DNA from: Dehalococcoidia bacterium
GTDB taxonomy: Bacteria; Chloroflexota; Dehalococcoidia; Lucifugimonadales; UBA1127
Reading direction: 5' to 3'
Assembly: GCA_034422455.1 (NCBI GenBank)
Contig: DAOUJQ010000023.1
Location: 108,290 to 172,289, forward strand
DNA: 64,000 bases
Shown here: in pieces, positions 8,282-55,659 of the stretch
How positions within the stretch are numbered: position 1 is the stretch's first letter
Layout of the letters: each line of letters starts with the position of its first letter
Notes under the pieces: generated by a model
Databases searched by the model: none
Seen by the model: only the letters and a program-made list of their open reading frames with translations
Told to the model about the DNA's origin: nothing
Position numbers and translations under genes: made by a program

Positions 8282-8398
8282 CCTTGCCCGTTCATCCTTC
8301 GATTTCCCTCAGGACGAGCGGGCAAGGGCGCCGCCCCTTGACGGCCCTTCGAGAGGCTCAGGGTGAACGGAGTGGGCGGCCACAAGGGCCGCCCCTAC
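8282..8398. repeat. Cluster of REP-like palindromes
   Basis: Hairpin CCTTGCCCG(8282-8290)/CGGGCAAGG(8319-8327); element CCCTTCGAGAGGCTCAGGGTGAACGG (8345-8370); GTAG-type REP whose reverse complement is GTAGGGGCGGCCCTTGTGGCCGCCC (8374-8398). Confidence 0.7.
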
Positions 8399-8490
8399 GT
8401 ACCGCTGTTGGGGCGGCTCGCTCTTTGCGAGGCGTTGGTAGTGTACTATTATGCCTACTTACTCGGAAATCGACGGAGGTATGGCGAGCC

Positions 8491-9285
8491 GTGACGACGT
8501 TGATGCCTGAAACCCCGCCGCAGGCCGTGCGGGAGCGCATACGCTCCGGCGAGTGGACGCGCCCGACGGCGGGGCTCGCGCCCGGTCACGTGCAGGCCAA
8601 CCTCGTGTCGCTGCCGCGCGAGCAGGCCTTCGACTTCCTGCTCTTCTGCCAGCGCAACCCGCGGCCCTGCCCGCTCATCGAGGTGATGGAGGCCGGCTGC
8701 CCCGAGCCCGCCTTGACCGCGCCGGGGGCCGACATCCGCACGGACCTGCCTGCCTACAACGTCTACCGCGAGGGCGTCCTCAAGGCCACCGTGCCCGACG
8801 TCCTCGACTACTGGCGCGACGACCTCGTCACCTTCCTGCTCGGCTGCAGCTTCACCTTCGAGGCCGCGCTGGCCGCCTCCGGCATCCCGCTGCACCACGT
8901 CGAGGCGGAGCGCAACGTCGCCATGTACAAGACCAACGTCGCGACCACCCCTGCCGGGGTGTTCGCCGGCCCGCTGGTTGTCTCAATGCGCCCCGTTCCG
9001 CGCGAGCAGGTGGTGAAGGCCGTGCAGGTGACCAGTCGCTTCCCCAACGCCCACGGCGCGCCGGTGCACGTCGGCGAGCCCGAGGCGCTGGGCATCCGCG
9101 ACCTTGCGTCGCCGGACTACGGCGACCCGCCCGTCATCAACGACGGCGAAACGCCCCTCTTCTGGGCGTGCGGCGTCACGCCGCAGGCGGTGGCTGTCGC
9201 GTCCAAGCCGCCGTTCATGATCACCCACGCGCCGGGGCACATGTTCGTCACCGACCTGCGCGACGAGGACATCGCCGCGCTATGA
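8491..9285 (+). CDS. Putative hydro-lyase, DUF1445/YcsI (D-glutamate cyclase N-terminal-like)
   Basis: [41 protein letters not shown] and [12 protein letters not shown] motifs. Confidence 0.9.
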
Positions 9286-10139
9286 CGACGACCATCGAGG
9301 ACATCATCCTGCGGTACGACAAGCGGGGCATGACGCCCCTGCGGCCGCACCTGCCCGCCGACTACTGCACCCGCGCCGCCCGGCGCCTCCTGGACGCCCC
9401 GGCCGGCCCCGCGCTCATCGCCACGGGCTTCTACATCACCCGCATGGGCGCGACGGAGACCGACGGCCCGCCGGGCGCCTACTTCATCGGCAAGGCGCTT
9501 GAGGCCCTCGGCCGCCCTGTCACCTACGTGACCGACAGCCTCACCGCGCCCGTCTTCGACGGTCTCGTTGCGCCTGACGCCGTGGTCGACTTTCCCTTTG
9601 CGGACGCCGAGACGAGCGAGGCGTTCGCCGTGGAGCTGCTGGCGCGGCTGCAGCCGTCGGTGGCCATCGCCATCGAGCGGTGCGGGTTCACGGGGCCCGG
9701 CCGGTACCTGAACATGCGCGGGCAGGACACGTCCGACGTTCACGCCAAGCTGGACTACATCTTCCTGCACCACGGCACGACGGTGGGCATCGGCGACGGC
9801 GGCAACGAGATCGGCATGGGGAACCTGCAGGAACACATCCCGTCCGTGGAGCAGCTGCCCAACGAGCCGTGCGTCACGACGGTGTCCGAGCTGATCATCG
9901 CGAGTGTGTCCAACTGGGGCGGCTCAGGCTTGATTGCCGCGCTGTCGCTGTTGACCGGGCGGGTCCTGCTCCCGTCGCCGGACGAGGAGGAGGGGATCAT
10001 CCGCGCGATGGTGGACAACGGCGCCGTCGACAGCGGCGGAGCGCACACGTACGGCGTCGACGGCTTCACTCCGCAGGAGAACCGCCGGACGCTTGAGGCG
10101 CTCCACCGCCTGCTGGCGGAGCACGGCGTGGGGGAGTAG
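9282..10139 (+). CDS. DUF4392 / glutamate-cyclase-like domain protein
   Basis: TGF...[27 protein letters not shown] and SVSNWGG motifs; ATGA overlap with the upstream gene. Confidence 0.88.
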
Positions 10140-19230: not shown

Positions 19231-20376
19231 CTACGCCACCAGCGGGTCCGGGTGCTTGATGAGGACCTTGGCGACCTCCGGCCGGATGAGCCCGCCCTCG
19301 GGGACCGTGCCGCTGGTCATCAGGTTCCGCAGCAGCGTGCCGCTGAACTGCTCCTGGTGCTCCGGCCCGTGAGGGCAGGTCTTCTCGTTCACAACGCTGC
19401 CGCACTTGTGGCACATGAAGAAGGACGTGAAGAACATCGGCGTGATGCCCAGGCCGGGGAAGTCGTCGAAGATCTCCTGCGCCGCGTAGGGCGTGTAGTA
19501 GCTGCCGACGCCCGCGTGGTCGCGCCCGACGATGAAGTGGGTGCAGCCGAAGTTCTTGCGGACGATGGCGTGGAAGATGGCCTCCTTGGGTCCCGCGTAG
19601 CGCATCTCCGTCCGCAGCACGGCCATGACCGCCCGTTCCGGCCGGTAGTAGTGCTCCATCAGCGCCTCGTACGTGGCGAGAATGGCGTCGTCCGTGAAGT
19701 CGCCCGACTTCTTGCGGCCGATGACCGGGTTGATGAAGAGCCCGTCCACAAAGCTGAGCGCCGACTTCTGTACGTACTCGTGGCCCAGGTGCGGCACGTT
19801 GCGCGTCTGGAAGCCGACCACCGTGCGCCACCCCTTGGCCTCGAACAGCACCCGCGTCTCGATGGGGTCGAGCGTGTACGCCGGGAACGCCGCCTCCGGC
19901 TCCGCGACGAGGTCGATGGCGCCGCCCAGCAGCGTGTCGTGGCGCTCCAGCAGGCCCGCGACGCCGGGGTGCTCCGTGTCCGTCGTGCCGAAGACGTGCT
20001 GCGCATAGCGCTCCTTGTCGTAGCCGTAGCGGTCCGTGACCTGCATGACGGCCACCGTCCGGCCGTTGGGCGCGGCGAGGGCCGCACGGTCTCCGAGGCC
20101 CTTGGCCTCCTCCGGGTCGACGTCCAGCACGATGGGAATGGTCCACGGCGTGCCGTCCGCAAGGCGGTCCGAGGAGAGGACGCTGTCCAGGTCGTGCCGG
20201 CCAAGGAAGCCTTCCAGCGGGCTGTAGGCGCCCGTTGCGATGTTGACGATGTCCGAAACCACGTCCGCCGACACAGTGAGGGTGGGCAGGCTTGCGGCCT
20301 CTTCCACCGCTTTCTGCTGCGCGTCGCCGGTGAGGACCCGGCGGACGAGGCGGCCTCCGTGTGGTGCAGGCAACAT
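19231..20376 (-). CDS. sat: Sulfate adenylyltransferase (Sat type)
   Basis: YSPLEGF, FQTRNVPHLGH, VRKNFGCTHFIVGRDHAG motifs. Confidence 0.96.
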   Translation of the reverse strand: MLPAPHGGRLVRRVLTGDAQQKAVEEAASLPTLTVSADVVSDIVNIATGAYSPLEGFLGRHDLDSVLSSDRLADGTPWTIPIVLDVDPEEAKGLGDRAALAAPNGRTVAVMQVTDRYGYDKERYAQHVFGTTDTEHPGVAGLLERHDTLLGGAIDLVAEPEAAFPAYTLDPIETRVLFEAKGWRTVVGFQTRNVPHLGHEYVQKSALSFVDGLFINPVIGRKKSGDFTDDAILATYEALMEHYYRPERAVMAVLRTEMRYAGPKEAIFHAIVRKNFGCTHFIVGRDHAGVGSYYTPYAAQEIFDDFPGLGITPMFFTSFFMCHKCGSVVNEKTCPHGPEHQEQFSGTLLRNLMTSGTVPEGGLIRPEVAKVLIKHPDPLVA

Positions 20377-21316: not shown

Positions 21317-22825
21317 ATGCTCCTGGATACGGTTCGCGTCGGACTGGCGTCGGTCGCGGCCGCGACGCTCTTGGCGGCGGGCTGCGTCGCCCCGCCGACG
21401 CCGACGCCCGTTCCCGTCCCCTCGCCGGACCCCACGGCGACTGCAAGACCCGCCCCAACTCCGGCGGCAACCCTTCCCGCATCGCCAACGCCGCCGTCCT
21501 CGCCGGCTCCTGACCCAACGGCCGCGTCGACGCCCACGCCAACAGCTATGCCGATACCAAAACCCACGGCCACGCCAACAGCTACGGCCACGCCGACGCC
21601 CATGCCAAAACCAACCGCCACGCCAACGCCAACCCTCACTCCTGAGCAAGCCGCCCATGCCGCGCTGTCCCAGTTGCTCCCGTGGTACAGCGATCCGCCT
21701 TACCCGGGCGCCGTGATACCGATCCTCGAAGTTTGGCTCAGAGACCCTGATCTGGGACGTGATCTGGCGCAGGCCCTTTGGGTCACCGACGGCATCAATC
21801 GACTGGAGGATGATGCGATCTATGGGCTGGGCCTCGTTTACGACCATGATCCTGCCCTGGCGCGCCGGTTGCTTGCGTACGCGTCTGAGGAACCGGTGCA
21901 GTCCAGAAACACCATGTTCCTGGGCAGTCTGAACGGAATGATCAGGGGCGACAGGGATAAGTTTGAGCAACTCATCGCCCGGCCCTGGTTTGCGGACGGA
22001 CTCGACGCGGAGGAGCGCGCCTTCATCACGGCCGTCAGCAAGGTCACGGGTTTAGACGCGCTGTACGAGGGCCTGCTCACCTCGCCGCGCATCACGCGGT
22101 CTGAGACCATTTCGCTGCCCCTGGCCGGCGAGGTCAATCTCTGGGTGTTTTACACCGATTCGCCACCGCCGAATGAGAACATTCTGGCGACGATAGAGAG
22201 GGGCGTACGGGGCGCCGAGGGGATCATAGGAGCGCCGTTCCCACTGACGGACCTCATTGTCCTGTCAGCCAATGTCGAGGAGTACGACATCGGGTACGGT
22301 GGTGTGAATTGGGTTGATTCCCTGGTCCTGCTTAGAGAAAAGGGTCTGTCTCTAGGTGAGAGCATCCTCTACCATGAGATCGCTCACTTCTATCTGACCG
22401 CCGAAATCGGGCCCTTCTGGCTTTATGAGGGCGGGGCCAATTTCGTCGCCGAGTACATCAAAGCGCAGCATGAACGAAATGGTGAGCTACGGTTGAACGA
22501 GCACGCTCTGCAATACTGCCGGGATCAGGAAGTGCCCAATCTCCACGCGCTGAACGACCCCAACCACCCGCATCCCGTGGGCCAACAAACTTGCGGCTAT
22601 TCGCTCGGCCTGTACTTCCTGACCAGTCTGTTCAACACCATCGGGGAAGCTGCCTTCTCATCGGCAATCCGGGAACTGTATGAGTTGTACCTGGACTATG
22701 AGTACTACGCAACTGATGAACAGGTCTACCGCATATTCCTGAAGCACACTCCGGCGGATCGGGAAGAGGCGTTCCTGAACGTGTACCGGCGGCTCCACGG
22801 CGGGCCTTTCCTCGACGAGAGTTGA
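21317..22825 (+). CDS. Lipoprotein with Pro/Thr linker and C-terminal gluzincin (clan MA) metallopeptidase domain
   Basis: Lipobox LAAGC, PT-rich stretch, HEIAH followed by WLYEG. Confidence 0.75.
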   Translation: MLLDTVRVGLASVAAATLLAAGCVAPPTPTPVPVPSPDPTATARPAPTPAATLPASPTPPSSPAPDPTAASTPTPTAMPIPKPTATPTATATPTPMPKPTATPTPTLTPEQAAHAALSQLLPWYSDPPYPGAVIPILEVWLRDPDLGRDLAQALWVTDGINRLEDDAIYGLGLVYDHDPALARRLLAYASEEPVQSRNTMFLGSLNGMIRGDRDKFEQLIARPWFADGLDAEERAFITAVSKVTGLDALYEGLLTSPRITRSETISLPLAGEVNLWVFYTDSPPPNENILATIERGVRGAEGIIGAPFPLTDLIVLSANVEEYDIGYGGVNWVDSLVLLREKGLSLGESILYHEIAHFYLTAEIGPFWLYEGGANFVAEYIKAQHERNGELRLNEHALQYCRDQEVPNLHALNDPNHPHPVGQQTCGYSLGLYFLTSLFNTIGEAAFSSAIRELYELYLDYEYYATDEQVYRIFLKHTPADREEAFLNVYRRLHGGPFLDES

Positions 22826-22984
22826 GGGCCGGGGGAGAGACCGCCGGTCCGCGCCGGGGCCCTCAGCGATTCCAGCAGCCGCATACAGGCCGCACCCTGC
22901 CACGACCGCCTTGCGCGGGCCGTCGCGCGGAAATCACACTTGCCGTCACACCCATTGGGAATTCTGTGATGGAGGTCGACTGCC

Positions 22985-24307
22985 GTGACACCTACTCTTC
23001 CCCAACAGTTGGAGCAACGAGACGCAGCCCGCATGCGGGCGTACCAGGAGAACCTCGCCTTCTACTCGGGCGCGCACTGGCCCGGGTCGCCCCGGCGCCG
23101 GGAGCGGCGGCTCACGTTCAACTACGTGCGCACGTTCGTGCACAAGCTCACCGCCGCGCTCATGGCCGGGCTGCACGTGGCCGTCGAGCCGGCGGACGAC
23201 TCGGCCGAGGCCGAGGCACGCGCGGCAGTGGCCCGCCGGGTCCTGCTGACCGCGTCCGAGGCCAATGACCTCGAGGAACTGGACTTTGAGACGGAGCTGG
23301 ACGCCGCCATCCTCGGCGACGGCTGCTACAAGGTCACTTGGGAATCGGACGGAGTCGCCGCCGCGCCCTGCGTCCGCGTGTCGGCGCCGGACGTGCAGGG
23401 CCTCCATGCCTGGTGGGTCGGCGATGACGTCACGCAGGTGTGGCGCGTCGCTAGCCGCTACAGGCTGACGGCCGAGGAGGCAGATCTGCTGTACGGGTTT
23501 ACCCCCTCCGGAAGCGAGGCCGTGGTTGTCGAGGCATGGACGCGGGAGACGTTCAGCCTCTGGGCGGACAACGGCCTGCTTGACGAGCGGCCCAACCCCT
23601 ACGGCTTCATCCCCTTCGTCGTGTTTCCCAACCTGCGGGAGCCCAAGCAGTTCTGGGGGTCGGCCGACGTGCCTGTCCTGATGGAGCCGCAACGGGAGAT
23701 CAACCGGGCGTTTTCCCAGCTCTCCACCATCCTGGAGCTCTCCGGCAACCCCATCGCCGTGCTGGAGGGCGTCGAGGAGGCGCAGGACATCGCCGTGCAG
23801 CCGGGGGCCGTGTGGGAGGTCCCGGAGCGCGCCCGCGCCTACCTGCTTGACCTGCTGCAGGGCGGCGGCGTCCGCCTGCACACGGAGTACATCGAGCTGC
23901 TCTACCGCGTGCTGCACGACCTCTCCGAGACCCCGCGGACTGCCTTTGGCGACAGCGGCCGGGACCTGTCCGGCGTTGCACTCGAGATGGAGCTCTATCC
24001 GATGGTGCAACGCGTGGCGCGCAAGCGCCTGCTCCGCAACTCCGTCTACCGGCAGCGTGCCGAGATGATGCTGCGAGTCCATCAACAGCGCACGGGGGAG
24101 ACCTGCATGCCGGTGCGCCTGCGCACCACGTGGGGCACGGCGCTCCCGCAGGACAGGGACCGGCTGGTGCAGCAGGAAGAGCGCCTGGTCAACGCGGGAC
24201 TGCAGAGCAGGCAGCGGGCGATGGCCAACCTGGGCGTTGCAGACCCCGAGGGCGAACTGACGCGCATTGGGGAGGAAGAGCGTTCACCGACGGGAACGAA
24301 GGAGTGA
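22985..24307 (+). CDS. Phage portal protein (SPP1 gp6-like)
   Basis: AFYSG..W, LTFNYVRTFVHKL, AAILGDGCYKV, NPYGFIPFVVFPN...FWGSAD and EINRAFS motifs; GTG start with GGAGG RBS. Confidence 0.85.
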   Translation: MTPTLPQQLEQRDAARMRAYQENLAFYSGAHWPGSPRRRERRLTFNYVRTFVHKLTAALMAGLHVAVEPADDSAEAEARAAVARRVLLTASEANDLEELDFETELDAAILGDGCYKVTWESDGVAAAPCVRVSAPDVQGLHAWWVGDDVTQVWRVASRYRLTAEEADLLYGFTPSGSEAVVVEAWTRETFSLWADNGLLDERPNPYGFIPFVVFPNLREPKQFWGSADVPVLMEPQREINRAFSQLSTILELSGNPIAVLEGVEEAQDIAVQPGAVWEVPERARAYLLDLLQGGGVRLHTEYIELLYRVLHDLSETPRTAFGDSGRDLSGVALEMELYPMVQRVARKRLLRNSVYRQRAEMMLRVHQQRTGETCMPVRLRTTWGTALPQDRDRLVQQEERLVNAGLQSRQRAMANLGVADPEGELTRIGEEERSPTGTKE

Positions 24308-24389
24308 CGCCCGTGCCCTGGGTACAGGGCACAGTCCCATCCGGCAAGAGCCCAAAGCCCGGAAGCAAAGGCGGCGGCGCCCGGTGCTC

Positions 24390-24734
24390 CTAGGTGGCGG
24401 CCGCTGCCCGCATGGCCTCGATCAGCGCCTTGGGACGCCGGCCCCTGCGCTTGATGATGCCCGCAACCTGGAGCGCCCGCAGCCCGTCCTCGACGGACAT
24501 CGCGGGGTGGGTCTCAATGTCGAAAACGTCCGTCCAGGGGTAGTTCGCCGCCAGCACGGGGCCGACGCTTTCGGCCTCGACAATGCTGATGACCTGGGGT
24601 GACCCTTGTATCCAGTACTCGGCCACCAGCTCCAGCCCGTTGGGCACACGCCACCGGGCCCTGCGCTGAGAGGCCTGGTCAATCTGTTGACGGGTCAAGT
24701 GCGGCTTGAGTGTCATTAGATTGACAAATAACAT
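24390..24734 (-). CDS. DUF3303-like small protein with basic C-terminal KRRGRRPK tail
   Basis: MLFVNL...LVAEYW...ISIVEAES...PWTDVFDIETHPAMSVEDGL pattern; strong GGAGGAGG RBS. Confidence 0.7.
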   Translation of the reverse strand: MLFVNLMTLKPHLTRQQIDQASQRRARWRVPNGLELVAEYWIQGSPQVISIVEAESVGPVLAANYPWTDVFDIETHPAMSVEDGLRALQVAGIIKRRGRRPKALIEAMRAAAAT

Positions 24735-24934
24735 GCGTCCTCCTCCTGCTCCCCACTCATCTATCCGCAATCAATTGAGAGATTTGATTGTGTGTCACGC
24801 CCACATACCCCATATTGAGAAGGTAACAATACACCATTTTTGGCATAGAGTCGATACGTCGAATACGCCCCTCCGCGTAAGTGTCACTCCTATTTGCTGG
24901 ATTGCATGGTGGGTAGGAGAGCGTGTAGGGCGCA

Positions 24935-24977
24935 GAACAAAGGAACTCCGGCAAGAGCCGCCGGAGTTCCTTTGTTC
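24935..24977. terminator. Perfect 18-bp hairpin, terminator-like on both strands
   Basis: GAACAAAGGAACTCCGGC-aagagcc-GCCGGAGTTCCTTTGTTC, about 50 nt past the stop of the minus-strand gene at 25030. Confidence 0.75.
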
Positions 24978-25029
24978 GAGTTGCGCAATTGAGACTCGCC
25001 TGTAGTTGAAAACCGCGAATTCTGGCAAC

Positions 25030-25485
25030 TTATTGAGACTGTTGCAGTCCCAGCATGATCTTCTGCTGAGGCGTCAGGCCCGCCGGGTCCATGGCGCGGC
25101 GGGCGGGCGCCCCTGCGGGAACACGCTGCTGCGCGGCCTGCTCCGCGGCCCTGAGGCGCAGCGTTTCCACCAGCCCGGACGCCCGGGTGTAGGACGCCTC
25201 GATCTCTGCGATGGTGTTCCCCTCCACCATGTCCGGCGGCACGTCCGGGTCCTTCGACAACAGAAGTTCCCGGTAGCGCTGCAGCGCTTCCGCGAGCTGC
25301 GTCCGCAGGGCGTCCGCGGCGGCGCCGTTCGCTGCCGCCTCGGCTCTCGCATCGTCCGCCTGCCGCTGCAGGTCCTCCATGCGCTCATCCGGCGCGGGGT
25401 CATCGATGGCCTCACCCTCATCCACCGCCATGGTCTCCTCAGTCTGCAGGGTCTCCTCTTCCGCGTTGACGTCTTCCGGGTCCAT
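25030..25485 (-). CDS. Probable phage capsid scaffolding-like protein (acidic coiled coil)
   Basis: Acidic N-terminus, coiled coil, YRELLL...P.VP.DMV.G.TI.EI.AS and C-terminal VPAGAPARR...LTPQQKI. Resembles, from memory, the gene preceding major capsid genes in Dehalococcoidia. GGAGG RBS. Confidence 0.6.
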   Translation of the reverse strand: MDPEDVNAEEETLQTEETMAVDEGEAIDDPAPDERMEDLQRQADDARAEAAANGAAADALRTQLAEALQRYRELLLSKDPDVPPDMVEGNTIAEIEASYTRASGLVETLRLRAAEQAAQQRVPAGAPARRAMDPAGLTPQQKIMLGLQQSQ

Positions 25486-25624
25486 GTTTCCTCCTTGCCG
25501 TGTGTTGTGAGGCAGCGTACCGCCTGGGGGACCCTCACGCGCAAGGCGCACGTGTCAGGGTGTTGCGCCCCCTACGCGCGCTCAGATAGAATCAACCAAT
25601 TCCCCGGTCAGGAGGTATGTCCCT

Positions 25625-27628
25625 ATGGGTCCCTTTACCACGGAACAGCTGCGCAACGTGGTCCTGCTCTCCCATAGCGGAGCCGGCAAGACCTCTTTGG
25701 CAGAGGCGATGCTGCTGACGTCCGGCTCCATCACCCGGCTGGGCAAGACGGAGGACGGCACCACCACCGGCGACTACGAGCCCGAGGCCATCAAGCGGAC
25801 CAGCAGCACGCAACTCTCCGTCCTTCCCTGCGCGTGGAAGGGCCAAAAGGTCACGTTGCTCGACAGCCCCGGATATTTCGACTTCATCGGTGATGCACTG
25901 TCGTCCCTGCGGGTGGCCGACGCCGCGGTGCTCGTCGTCGCGGCGGGCGCCGGCGTCGAGGTCGGCACCGAGCAGATGTGGCGCGCGCTGCGCCGGCACG
26001 GCCTCCCGTGCGTCATCGTGGTCAACAAGCTGGACCGCGACAACACGGACTTCATGGCGACGGTTGAGGACCTCCGCAACAACTTGGGCCGCGAGTGCTT
26101 CGCGCTGCAGGTGCCCGTGGGCGAGGCGGCCGGCTTCAAGGGCGTCGTCCCCATCCTCCCGGCCCCCTCGGAAGTGCCTGCCGAGGCGCAGGACGCCTAC
26201 GAGCTGGCCCGCGAGTCCCTCGTGGAGTCCGTCGCGGAGACCGACGACGACCTGGCCACCAAGTGGCTGGAAGAGGGGACGCTGACCGACGAGGAGATGC
26301 TGGAGCCGCTGCGGCGCGCGGTCATCGAGGGCACCGCCGTGCCGGTCCTGGCCGCCTCCGCGACCCACAACGTGGGCGCGGCGGAGGTGCTGGACGCGCT
26401 GCTCGCCCTGGCCCCGTCGCCGTTGGAGGGCGAGAACCCCGTCGACCCGAGCGGCCCGCTGGCGGCGCTGGCCTTCAAGACCTCCGCCGACCCCTACGTC
26501 GGCAAGCTGACATTCCTGAAGGTCTACAGCGGCACGTTGAACAGCAACACGGAGGTCTACAACTCCCTGAAGGAGCGCTCGGAGCGGCTGGGGCAGCTCT
26601 TCGTGCCCATGGGCAAGAGCCAGGAGCAGGTGGCAACGCTGGTGGCCGGCGAGATCGGGGCCGTTGGCCGGTTGGTCGAGACCACCACGGGCGACACCCT
26701 CTCCACCAAGGACTCAGGCGCCAGGATGGTGGGCATCGACTTCCCCGCCCCCATCTACACCATGGCCGTCTACCCGGCGACCAAGGGCGACACCGACAAG
26801 ATGGGTTCCGCCCTCAGCCGGTTGTCGGAGGAGGACCCCAGCCTGCACTTTGTCCGCGACCAGAGCACCAGCGAGTCCCTGCTGTCCGGCATGGGCGACG
26901 CGCACCTGGACGTGATGGTGCAGCGCGCGCAGCGGAAGTTCGGCGTCAACCTGCTGCTTCAGACCCCCAAGGTCCCCTACCGCGAGACCATCGGCGGCAC
27001 CACCAGGGTGGAGCACCGGCACAAGCAGCAGTCCGGCGGCCACGGCCACTTCGCCCACATCCTGCTGCGCGTGGAGCCCACCGGAGGCGCGTCCGAGGGC
27101 GAGTTCGCCACGGAGGTCGTCGGTGGCGCCGTGCCCAAGGAGTTCATCCCCGCGGTCGAGAAGGGTGTCCGCAGGGCGTGGGCCGAGGGCATCGTCGCGG
27201 GCTTCCCCGTCGTCGACACCAAGGCAGTCCTCTACGACGGCAGCTACCACCCCGTCGACTCGGCCAGCATGGACTTCGAGACCTGCGGCTACTTCGCGAT
27301 GAAGAAGGCCTTCGCCGAGGGCTCGCCGCAGCTCCTGGAGCCCATCATGCTCCTGCGCGTCAATACGCCGGACTCCTACACGGGCGAGATCATCGGCGAC
27401 CTGAACAGCAAGCGGGGGCGCATCCTCGGCATGATCCCGCAGGAAGACGGCGCCACGGTGGTCGAGGCCAACGTGCCCCTGCCGGAGGTGCAGCGGTACG
27501 CCCTGGACCTGCGCTCCCTGACGCAGGGCCGTGCCACCTTCACCATGGAGGTGGACCACTACGAGCCCCTGCCCTCGAACCTGGCGCAAAAGGTCGTGGA
27601 GCAGTACAAGGCAGGCGCCGGCGCGTAG
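25625..27628 (+). CDS. fusA2: Elongation factor G-like protein (EF-G2)
   Basis: Divergent G1 SHSGAGKT, DSPGYFDF, NKLD, KQQSGGHGHF and YHPVDS motifs. Confidence 0.93.
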   Translation: MGPFTTEQLRNVVLLSHSGAGKTSLAEAMLLTSGSITRLGKTEDGTTTGDYEPEAIKRTSSTQLSVLPCAWKGQKVTLLDSPGYFDFIGDALSSLRVADAAVLVVAAGAGVEVGTEQMWRALRRHGLPCVIVVNKLDRDNTDFMATVEDLRNNLGRECFALQVPVGEAAGFKGVVPILPAPSEVPAEAQDAYELARESLVESVAETDDDLATKWLEEGTLTDEEMLEPLRRAVIEGTAVPVLAASATHNVGAAEVLDALLALAPSPLEGENPVDPSGPLAALAFKTSADPYVGKLTFLKVYSGTLNSNTEVYNSLKERSERLGQLFVPMGKSQEQVATLVAGEIGAVGRLVETTTGDTLSTKDSGARMVGIDFPAPIYTMAVYPATKGDTDKMGSALSRLSEEDPSLHFVRDQSTSESLLSGMGDAHLDVMVQRAQRKFGVNLLLQTPKVPYRETIGGTTRVEHRHKQQSGGHGHFAHILLRVEPTGGASEGEFATEVVGGAVPKEFIPAVEKGVRRAWAEGIVAGFPVVDTKAVLYDGSYHPVDSASMDFETCGYFAMKKAFAEGSPQLLEPIMLLRVNTPDSYTGEIIGDLNSKRGRILGMIPQEDGATVVEANVPLPEVQRYALDLRSLTQGRATFTMEVDHYEPLPSNLAQKVVEQYKAGAGA

Positions 27629-27716
27629 GGAGAGTCTCGCGCAGTCCGCGGCCGCAAACGCGTGGGCAAGGAACCAGTCTGTGCCGTGTAACGTTCTGGA
27701 TTTGGGAGGTGGAGAT

Positions 27717-28037
27717 ATGCTTCGCGAGAGCTTTGCCATGCTCCATTATTCAGAGAGGGTCGTGACAGAGGTGCTGATCCTCACCGCTGAGTTCGATCAA
27801 GAGGGGGATCAGTGGACTGGTGAGTGTCTTGAATTGGGCACAGCCACGTGTGCGGATACCCTTGAGGATGTCCGCAAGGAGCTCTACGAACTTGTCGACA
27901 TGCACGTCAATGGCGTCGACAAGATGGGCTTCATTGAAGAGTTCTTGAGCGAACGCGGCGTCAAACCCCTGCCTGTCGCAGATGTCGGCCAGGAATATGC
28001 CGCAAACACCTACGTGACGGTAGGAGCCCCTCTCTAG
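27717..28037 (+). CDS. hicB: HicB-like antitoxin without an obvious DNA-binding domain
   Basis: WTGECLELGTATCADTLEDVRKEL fits the HicB RNase-H-like core; lower GC; start uncertain (27717, 27738 or 27762). Confidence 0.7.
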   Translation: MLRESFAMLHYSERVVTEVLILTAEFDQEGDQWTGECLELGTATCADTLEDVRKELYELVDMHVNGVDKMGFIEEFLSERGVKPLPVADVGQEYAANTYVTVGAPL

Positions 28038-28040
28038 CCC

Positions 28041-28292
28041 ATGCCGATCGCAATTTCCGGCAAGGCCTTGGTAGAGCTATTGCTCAAGGATGGCTGGCAA
28101 ATAGAGCGACGGACCAACCATGGACTCCTCATGTGGAAGATGTTTCCCGGAGAATCCACTCGCCGAACCACCATCGTCCCGGACAAGTCAAAAGATCTTG
28201 CCGACAAGATTCTGGGTGTGATTCTCGGCGTCAAGCAGACGCGAATCGGACGCCAGGGCCTGCAGGAACTCATCGACCGCTATGGCAAATAG
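28041..28292 (+). CDS. hicA: HicA-family toxin (dsRBD-like mRNA interferase)
   Basis: SGKALVELLLKDGWQIERRTNHG...TTIVP...ILGVIL pattern. Confidence 0.7.
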   Translation: MPIAISGKALVELLLKDGWQIERRTNHGLLMWKMFPGESTRRTTIVPDKSKDLADKILGVILGVKQTRIGRQGLQELIDRYGK

Positions 28293-33677: not shown

Positions 33678-34003
33678 GCCACGGCCGGGTCCCGGAGGTG
33701 CGCAGGCCCACCCTGCCACCAACCCCTCGCGCGAATGCTGTGTCGCTCCCTATCCTCCTCCCATGAGCGGCCAAATGAAGGACCCCAACGTCCACATGGA
33801 CCTTCTCCTGTGGGCCACCCAGTTCTTGCCCGCATGGCTCGGGTTGAAGATCGTATGCGCCTCGGCCTGTGACCCTCAGGAATTGTTTCTCACGGGCGGC
33901 AATTTTTTTGCCGTAGCTGGGAGGCCCCAAAACAGCTACGGCGCGACAAATGAAGTCAATTTCCCGCAGCTACGAGGTCTGGCGAAACAATTCGGCAAAG
34001 TCT

Positions 34004-55261: not shown

Positions 55262-55659
55262 ACGTGGACGCCGAGGCCGTCAACGTTCTCCATCCTTTCT
55301 CGCTTCCCCCAAGCATCGACGCTGTTTCCTCGGCCTGCCGCCCGCGGCGCCGGGGGAATTGTTTTTCCATTTGTTTTGTAGCGGCCGTGGCACGTCCCAG
55401 ATACAAAACAGAAAATTTTCATCAGGACAAATCAAACCCAGATCTGCCGGGCCGAGCGCAACCGGTCCTCCCTCCTGAGCAGGCGCGCAAGCAGCCGGGC
55501 GGCGTCGTGCTGCCGGGGGTCCTTGATTTCCTTCTCCATGCGTGGAGGGTAGAGGAGTCGTCCGTGTTCGCGCGAGGGATTGGTGGCAGGGGGCGGGGAC
55601 AAGTCCTGTACAATTCCGAGTATGCAGCTTCCACCCAGTTCCGCCCATTCGAGGTTGTA

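Follow-up and report, generated by a model that had tools for sequence, protein, structure and literature searches.

Why do two head genes of a tailed phage, coding for a portal and a scaffold-like protein, stand intact and convergent among the housekeeping genes of a 64-kb stretch of Dehalococcoidia DNA (the window hereafter, always at its full length)? The original prediction for this DNA had taken them for parts of a dispersed particle system kept by the host. The proposal is supported by class-wide conservation of the gene set, its ratios of nonsynonymous to synonymous divergence (dN/dS), the tracking of host-gene distances by the portal, a separate terminase module and a shared promoter. 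It is fairly probable that the window holds the portal and probable scaffold genes of a host-controlled, DNA-packaging particle system, which resembles gene transfer agents (GTAs) or PBSX and is ancient in Dehalococcoidia; a GTA function itself is what we infer from the genes. The gene set appears, from comparison of genomes, to be fixed, vertically inherited and under purifying selection throughout the class Dehalococcoidia.

The two head genes and the cluster of their relatives

The phage-like content of the window consists of the portal gene and the scaffold-like gene and nothing more according to Pfam scans and tblastn, and a tblastn search of the 64 kb with ten other families of the related phage-like cluster gave no match, in agreement with what had been claimed for the stretch. 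Pfam and tRNA scans of the window found no integrase or att site, repressor, replication module or lysis module, and Rfam returned tRNAs only, the nearest of which lie 11 kb from the portal/scaffold region. About 45 other open reading frames (ORFs) belong to housekeeping or metabolic Pfam families (pheT, moeA, fpg, rpoD, dnaG, lspA, sat, cysC, purL and others). The GC content at codon positions 1/2/3 is 0.73/0.46/0.88 in the portal gene and 0.78/0.45/0.84 in the scaffold-like gene and is alike in the neighbouring housekeeping genes, as expected from the host-like GC noted at the outset. The region is arranged as follows:

19231-20376: sat, flank of the portal region
20380 to about 21000: cysC, flank of the portal region
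22985-24307, plus strand: portal gene, 440 aa, intact (Pfam, PHROG)
24390-24734, minus strand: DUF3303 gene, 114 aa, an intervening host gene outside the particle system (Pfam PF11746, 2.3e-12)
24937-24977, minus strand: GC-rich 19-bp hairpin, terminator-like, without a U tract, 53 nt downstream of the scaffold-like gene
25030-25485, minus strand: scaffold-like gene, 151 aa, intact (composition, position, weak PHROG match)
25625-27628: EF-G paralogue, flank of the scaffold-like gene

By its sequence the gene at 22985-24307 is an SPP1-type portal gene. Residues 9-433 of its product align with positions 4-411 of the 416 of Pfam SPP1_portal PF05133 (E=4e-15, 56.1 bits against a cut-off of 25.5), and several portal families of PHROG are matched, phrog_64 at 2e-20. 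A profile of the portal and its relatives also matches the solved portals of phiCD508 (gp45, 2e-10) and 80alpha. The AlphaFold model, calculated from a 27-sequence alignment, is poor and of qualitative use only (predicted local distance difference test 55, predicted template modelling score 0.35); its 29 best Foldseek matches in the PDB are all portal proteins, with template modelling (TM) scores of only 0.24-0.36. Translation would start at a GTG nine bases after GGAGG (22971-22975). The public gene call (P0001) is shorter, 424 aa from Met17, but the 440-aa form is more likely, because homologues are conserved from residue 4-5 onwards and the GTG at 22985 has GGAGG ahead of it. An intact 440-aa portal-like gene with a strong ribosome-binding site, as first described, is thus borne out by both the full-length PF05133 match and the start region. 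One homologue, P0021 (603 aa, on a 1.03-Mb contig), carries a C-terminal extension of about 150 aa that looks as if the reading frame ran on into the antisense strand of DUF3303 downstream, and is probably an artefact of gene calling or a frameshift.

The head genes had been called isolated, and this does not hold: both belong to a set of about 12 genes, which in most relatives stand close together. All ORFs were clustered in 82, later 168, loci related to the portal (cited below by L numbers). Most relatives carry a co-oriented cluster of about 12 genes and about 11 kb; among the 168 portal loci, the large terminase (TerL) gene lies upstream in 87, the scaffold gene downstream in 126, and the gene for the major capsid protein (MCP) is present in 95. 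The terminase and capsid partners that the original prediction had advised seeking in other genomes therefore exist. The gene families of the cluster are:

c10, about 105 aa: multi-pass membrane protein; its gene opens the terminase module
c5, about 115 aa: helical protein
c7, about 80 aa: protein with a C-terminal membrane anchor
c3, about 465 aa: TerL (motifs, fold)
c1, about 100 aa: protein with a Cys-rich N-terminus (zinc-ribbon) and HTH_23
c0, about 440 aa: portal
c6, about 150 aa: scaffold-like protein, the family of the 151-aa protein of the window
c14, about 296 aa: HK97-type major capsid (head) protein (phrog_212 7.6e-79, PF05065)
c18, about 210 aa: SU10-type head-tail adaptor (PF24175 4.8e-13)
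c78, about 110 aa: small protein
c19, about 660 aa: tail protein (phrog_1887 1.6e-5)
c39, about 80 aa: small protein

They form a TerL module (c10, c7, c5, TerL) and a head/tail module (c1, portal, scaffold, MCP, adaptor, c78, c19, c39).

The terminase, annotated 'hypothetical' by NCBI, has a weak sequence match to Terminase_6C (1.4e-3), and its profile found no match among PDB sequences. Its Walker A (RQGGKN), its Walker B (DEAQ) and the three acidic motifs of the nuclease are invariant, P0244 and P0277 of the window's clade included, and its 34 best fold matches in the PDB are all large terminases (T4 gp17, HK97, Sf6, D6E). Because of these invariant motifs and fold matches, and because the G20c nuclease domain matches it with a TM score of 0.75, c3 is regarded as the large terminase. 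The membrane proteins c10 (L046 35-343; L086 8905-9237) and c7 (L018 7892-8149; L086 9717-9977) could possibly have holin- or lysis-type functions. On complete chromosomes, no gene for an integrase, excisionase, repressor, replication protein or endolysin and no att/tRNA feature was found in or beside the compact clusters, which are neighboured by genes for HIT, HD, acyl-CoA dehydrogenase, SDR, ECF sigma and similar proteins. Host genes interrupt the cluster at different points in different lineages. A pair of genes for an ECF sigma factor and a zf-HC2 anti-sigma factor, for example, is an insertion that splits the portal from the scaffold/capsid module in several genomes (e.g., L001, L016).

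The 151-aa protein is a probable scaffolding protein of this phage-derived set. It is acidic and coiled-coil-like (21% Asp+Glu, 19% Ala), and its family has the conserved C-terminal motifs RVPAGAP and LSPREKI. A Pfam scan of the protein gave no match, its match to phrog_1793 'head scaffolding' is weak (E=4e-4), 13 of 29 family members match some head-scaffolding PHROG, again weakly (E<0.01), and the PDB profile matches of the family are generic coiled coils. The best argument for the identity of the family is its location between the portal and capsid genes: homologues occur at 126 of the 168 loci, where a median of 49.5 nt separates them from the preceding portal gene and the major capsid gene follows immediately. 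The window's copy is inverted, and no capsid gene lies next to it. Its ATG lies behind AAGGAGG, so the intact minus-strand gene with a strong ribosome-binding site was rightly described at the outset. The hairpin downstream of it is predicted to be stable (folding window 24920-25035, minus strand, -51.9 kcal/mol, z = -6.6 against shuffles); a scan for canonical intrinsic terminators around both genes returned nothing, and the hairpin at 24937-24977 does not fit that form.

Distribution, inheritance and dispersal of the gene set

The protein collection holds more than 4229 relatives of the portal, the best 120 of which are at least 61% identical, and more than 5351 of the terminase, the best 120 at least 60% identical. 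The named portal relatives among the best 120 all come from Chloroflexota/Dehalococcoidia metagenome-assembled genomes, many on contigs of 1-3.3 Mb. At least 585 GTDB species-representative genomes carry the portal at 56-87% identity, all of them Dehalococcoidia/Chloroflexota and many with chromosomes of 2-3.4 Mb, which substantiates the remark in the original prediction that similar genes recur in Dehalococcoidia. Among 50,697 phage records, the closest portal reaches just 24% identity. Portals more distant than those of the class, with identities between 49% and about 30%, were also found, and related free phages do exist. To judge from these distant portals, the phage-like context of a 43%-identical one, the viral contigs of IMG/VR and a capsid protein that is 41% identical to capsids of real siphophages, the phage ancestry of the gene set is clear. 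The related IMG/VR contigs (loci L088-L167 among them) carry portals that are 52-60% identical and are mostly fragments of 5-15 kb.

Selection on the genes was estimated between the window and sister genomes, at a synonymous divergence (dS) of about 0.6-1.0. The dN/dS ratio is 0.10-0.17 for the portal, compared with 0.14-0.20 for sat, 0.16-0.23 for cysC and 0.11-0.19 for EF-G; it is 0.24-0.40 for the scaffold-like gene and 0.03-0.04 for DUF3303. Both head genes are therefore under purifying selection by the dN/dS check that had been recommended, and with the portal in the range of sat and EF-G the proposed host-level selection that keeps them intact is upheld. Portal distances between genomes correlate with those of the adjacent HIT (r=0.87) and HD (r=0.96) genes as well as with those of TerL (0.76) and MCP (0.78; Mantel p=0.001 each), and the mean distance is smaller for the portal (0.32) than for HIT (0.44) and HD (0.53). 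Relative to the rest of the family, the window's portal shows neither relaxation nor acceleration. Because its dN/dS matches that of sat and EF-G and its distances track HIT and HD, the portal seems to evolve as a host gene, unlike a decaying or freely moving prophage.

How the two genes came to face each other can be read from the window's clade. The order sat, cysC, portal, DUF3303 (minus), scaffold (minus), EF-G is common to the window and L003-L008, L083 and L087, whose portals are 79-87% identical. L084 (portal 69% identical) is an intermediate, with the order HIT, HD, ..., c5, c7, TerL, c1, portal, DUF3303 (minus), scaffold (minus), EF-G, and in L029 DUF3303 is inserted while the scaffold gene is still co-oriented. 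DUF3303 lies between the portal and scaffold genes only in the lineage of L029, L084 and L085 and in the window clade. The opposing orientation is thus a clade-specific inversion of the scaffold gene.

When the terminase of L084 was used as query, terminases were found on the same contigs of 675,376 bp and 663,169 bp as portals of the window clade. On the first contig, cytochrome-c biogenesis genes and glmS flank a six-gene module (110 aa, 52 aa, c5, c7, TerL, c1) at about 31 kb, and the portal follows at about 409 kb; on the second, the same six-gene module stands in a different context. The gene set is dispersed in the window's clade, because module and portal are 378 kb apart on one contig and the context of the module differs in the second clade genome. 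In the window's lineage, the set is in at least three pieces, with the terminase module, the portal and the inverted scaffold gene each at a site of its own. Of the earlier argument that opposing transcription units point to a dispersed system, the dispersal has therefore stood, with the terminase module 378 kb away, but the opposition is peculiar to this clade, since the scaffold gene is co-oriented with the portal in 115 of the 126 loci that have it. Contigs of the Joint Genome Institute (JGI) metagenome collection were scanned with the clade promoter motif CCCTGMCACGNNNNNCTTGYGCG for capsid/tail modules; the 101 hits, none near cluster genes, are chance matches at that scale, and the window clade is absent from that collection.

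The flanks of the region deserve a few remarks. Between cysC and the portal, a 502-aa ORF is inserted (21317-22825); its N-terminus is Pro/Thr-rich and lipoprotein-like, and it contains a HEIAH metallopeptidase-like motif. The gene call is uncertain, with a low GC at third codon positions (0.72) that falls to 0.39 over the last 1.1 kb in the tested frame, and most sister genomes have no such ORF at this spot, cysC ending about 270-290 bp before the portal. Together with DUF3303, it was overlooked in the original prediction, which was right about the orientation of the head genes and about sat/cysC and EF-G as their flanks. Just downstream of EF-G, in the sister genomes too, follows a pair of HicB-like (110 aa) and HicA-like (83 aa; PF07927 8e-4, under the cut-off) genes (27705-28292).

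A promoter family shared by the modules

Both head genes of the window are preceded by a common pattern, CCCTGMCACG-N5-CTTGYGCG followed after 18-21 nt by AC(A/G)CT(T/G)GCC, and the elements are placed as follows:

22895..22917, plus strand: portal promoter, upstream element and -35-like box, CCCTGCCACG-N5-CTTGCGCG (motif match, clade conservation)
22936..22944, plus strand: portal promoter, -10-region element ACACTTGCC, 18-21 nt after the -35-like box
25511..25518, minus strand: scaffold-gene promoter, -10-region element ACGCTGCC (clade conservation)
25538..25560, minus strand: scaffold-gene promoter, upstream element and -35-like box, CCCTGACACG-N5-CTTGCGCG (second exact motif match)

The motif TGMCACGNNNNNCTTGYGCG has exactly two exact matches in the 64 kb, one ahead of each head gene; shuffled sequences contain a mean of 1.4 even with two mismatches allowed. 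The portal element is kept at a fixed 85-87 nt from the start codon in 9 clade genomes, with synonymous sites near saturation, and its -10 element is retained as ACAC(T)T/GGCC in all clade genomes. The element of the scaffold gene is kept in 7 further clade genomes, with a degenerate copy in an eighth, L087, and its -10 element as (T)ACGCTG(G/C)C in clade genomes. A scan for consensus sigma-70 promoters around both genes returned nothing. In L004, the portal-type element occurs twice (8377-8399 and 9902-9924), about 1.5 kb apart, and the upstream copy precedes an inserted 127-aa ORF, which looks like a promoter duplication accompanying the insertion. Two near-identical 20-mers TGCCACCAAYCCCTCGCGCG in the window (33714-33733, plus strand; 55569-55588, minus strand), which match the promoter pattern with 2 mismatches, may be a small dispersed repeat.

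In distant genomes, GTGMCAY-N7-8-TTGACA-N5-6-GAAC-N4-GT(T/G)C-TAnnnT stands ahead of the modules and reads as a sigma-70 promoter whose spacer palindrome is identical to the Gram-positive SOS (LexA/Cheo) box. GAAC-N4-GTTC is the Gram-positive type of SOS box, and LexA of Dehalococcoides reportedly binds it. Such composite promoters number 117 in 2.08 Mb against 0-3 in Markov simulations; 95 of them immediately precede c1, c10, c5 or the scaffold gene, 111 share the strand of the portal, and most of the remainder stand before divergent first genes of the terminase module. Where host genes part the scaffold gene from the portal (12 loci), the scaffold gene has a promoter copy of its own.

The window's portal promoter shares the layout CTGMCA-N8-TTG with these LexA-box promoters of distant relatives. 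Terminase modules of the window clade keep the LexA-type box with one mismatch: the module promoter of L086 reads TTGACC-ATCAC-AAACATTTGTTC-TATTTT, and that of L168, CCCTGACACG-GGCTG-CTTGCGT...AAACATACGTTC-TATTCT, combines the window-type element with the box. Because L168 joins the two, the window promoters appear to be derived members of the same promoter family in which the palindrome has been lost and the hexamers are weak. The modules that carry the box are putatively controlled by LexA, with a cluster-specific protein such as c1 as an alternative regulator. Directly upstream of the terminase-module promoter of L086, a window-clade genome, there are tandem units of about 60 bp (…ccgttcgccctgagcctgtcgaagggc…; 8400-8800).

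Competing explanations and known systems

A host-controlled, DNA-packaging system could have reached its present state in the following way. An ancestral co-oriented cluster of about 11 kb would have had one promoter type at the start of each transcription unit; in the window's lineage, host genes and rearrangements would have split the set, each piece keeping or regaining a promoter copy, with the palindrome lost from the portal and scaffold copies and retained, with its mismatch, in that of the terminase module. A host signal, probably DNA damage sensed through LexA and possibly relayed by the helix-turn-helix protein of the cluster, would switch on all modules; small short-tailed capsids would assemble on a portal/scaffold nucleus and be filled with DNA by the terminase, as in gene transfer agents or the PBSX-type defective prophage. 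The regulator, the induction by DNA damage, the assembly of short-tailed capsids, the packaged DNA and the transfer or killing that would follow are all read from gene content and promoters. The boldest form of the proposal, which we put forward tentatively and at somewhat less than an even chance, is that the set is an ancient, independently domesticated, short-tailed GTA across Dehalococcoidia and the first in Chloroflexota, that an SOS promoter copied to each fragment preserves the regulon, and that the window represents the most fragmented state known.

Several points weigh against a particle system in the window's lineage. Homologue searches, which were aimed elsewhere, did not locate capsid, adaptor or tail genes in the window's clade, and the completeness of the system there is assumed; the clade terminase was seen in two sister genomes only and not in the window's own genome. 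The scaffold assignment is based on position, composition and weak profile matches, both window promoters are without a LexA-type box and have poor -35/-10 hexamers, and no clear lysis enzyme was identified in the cluster and no endolysin recognised there. Some of these points would suit a co-option of the portal and scaffold-like protein in the window's clade for a capsid-free role, such as a membrane or DNA channel, after loss of the capsid and tail genes: searches aimed elsewhere turned up no capsid, adaptor or tail gene there, and both promoters have lost the box that other modules carry. However, in sister genomes the six-gene terminase module is intact, with every catalytic motif and a promoter of the same family, and the portal is neither relaxed nor accelerated compared with the rest of its family, so that co-option is quite unlikely. 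A portal-bearing nanocompartment, one of the options raised at first, is unlikely too, because an intact large terminase co-evolves with the portal; an encapsulin was rejected since the set includes the portal and a terminase whose catalytic motifs are intact.

A 43%-identical portal that sits in a context resembling a genuine phage, and the 373 related contigs that IMG/VR lists as viral, also count against domestication. Together with capsids 41% identical to those of real siphophages and with LexA-box promoters, which are typical of SOS-inducible prophages, they would fit a temperate phage or capsid-forming satellite that is widespread in Dehalococcoidia and still mobile, with the loci found as its integrated copies. 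This is very unlikely: complete chromosomes show no integrase, excisionase, repressor, replication gene or att/tRNA in or beside the compact loci, the cluster is only about 11 kb and is interrupted by host genes that differ by lineage, its pieces can lie hundreds of kb apart, portal distances track those of neighbouring housekeeping genes, and GC and codon usage are the host's. Two specific candidates were rejected: a satellite of the type of capsid-forming phage-inducible chromosomal islands, for want of an integrase or rep gene and given a conserved context and a divergence that tracks the host, and a functional temperate prophage, for want of integration, replication and lysis modules and with structural genes up to 378 kb apart. 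That the portal and scaffold genes are functionless leftovers of an ordinary decayed prophage is suggested by the presence of just two phage-type genes in 64 kb and by the disrupted canonical gene order, but is scarcely credible when both genes are intact with the low dN/dS given above, when the cysC/EF-G synteny is kept across 9 genomes that, at a dS of 0.6-0.9, are no recent copies of one another, and when the family is conserved class-wide and the promoter motif upstream of both genes. A more serious contender, still unlikely, accepts the particles and takes them for a killing or defence device (PBSX- or tailocin-like, or altruistic lysis on DNA damage) in which packaged DNA is incidental and no genes are transferred. 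The SOS-type promoter architecture is that of PBSX-like elements, and the membrane proteins c10 and c7 could act in lysis. Against it, the conserved nuclease and ATPase motifs of the terminase indicate that DNA packaging matters, but PBSX packages DNA too, and nothing in the sequence separates a killing role from a GTA.

If the set makes DNA-carrying particles, it would provide a mechanism for DNA exchange in a nearly uncultured lineage that dominates many subsurface and marine communities, and its class-wide conservation and putative SOS wiring fit such a role. Dehalococcoidia abound in subsurface habitats, in the deep ocean (SAR202 relatives) and in sponges, and very few members have been cultured. 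It would also mean that a domesticated virus can stay one functional unit despite the scatter of its genes, the promoter travelling with each fragment. Since IMG/VR counts such contigs as viruses, the element probably inflates the provirus counts of Dehalococcoidia. A search of the literature on GTAs and phage portals in Dehalococcoidia, Dehalococcoides, Chloroflexi/Chloroflexota and SAR202 found no description of this system, and we know of only a handful of independent GTAs, none in Chloroflexota.

Like RcGTA of Rhodobacter capsulatus (Alphaproteobacteria), the Dehalococcoidia set consists of head, tail and terminase genes that derive from a phage, and it lacks functions for replication and lysogeny. 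Its genes, again as in RcGTA, are spread over several loci, apparently inherited vertically and under purifying selection across a large host clade, and host control of expression, which its promoters suggest, would be a further likeness. The set differs in having no orthology to RcGTA beyond generic folds, in its Chloroflexota host, in the LexA-type box of its promoters, and in the short tail suggested by its SU10-type adaptor and its one tail protein of about 660 aa. RcGTA, for its part, resembles siphoviruses, has a tape measure and is regulated by CtrA, GafA and quorum sensing. With PBSX of Bacillus, the set shares a chromosomal, non-replicating state, the GAAC-N4-GTTC type of operator and, presumably, induction by DNA damage; PBSX particles package host DNA. 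PBSX, however, is a contractile-tailed killer particle of about 28 kb that encodes a repressor of its own (Xre) and occurs in a narrow group only, whereas the Dehalococcoidia set is about 11 kb, class-wide and fragmented in some lineages. VSH-1 of Brachyspira hyodysenteriae, which is induced by mitomycin C, and the GTAs of Dd1/VTA type are likewise independent domestications of small tailed phages, but in unrelated hosts and with different gene sets.

Tailed phages that have an SPP1-type portal and a short tail of SU10/C3 type (Bacillus BCD7, Streptomyces BRock, Escherichia SU10) share with the set the portal, adaptor and capsid families and the order terminase-portal-scaffold-capsid-adaptor-tail, but their portals are at most 24% identical, and they are real phages with replication, lysis and regulatory modules that are not fixed in host lineages. 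Encapsulin, too, is an HK97-fold shell protein of phage origin in cellular genomes, yet it comes without portal, terminase, adaptor or tail, all four of which the Dehalococcoidia set has in relatives of the window. GTAs and particles of defective prophages are thus already known; the Dehalococcoidia set would extend them to a new phylum through an independent domestication, and would bring a short-tail gene set, promoters of SOS type and a regulon held together by promoter copies.

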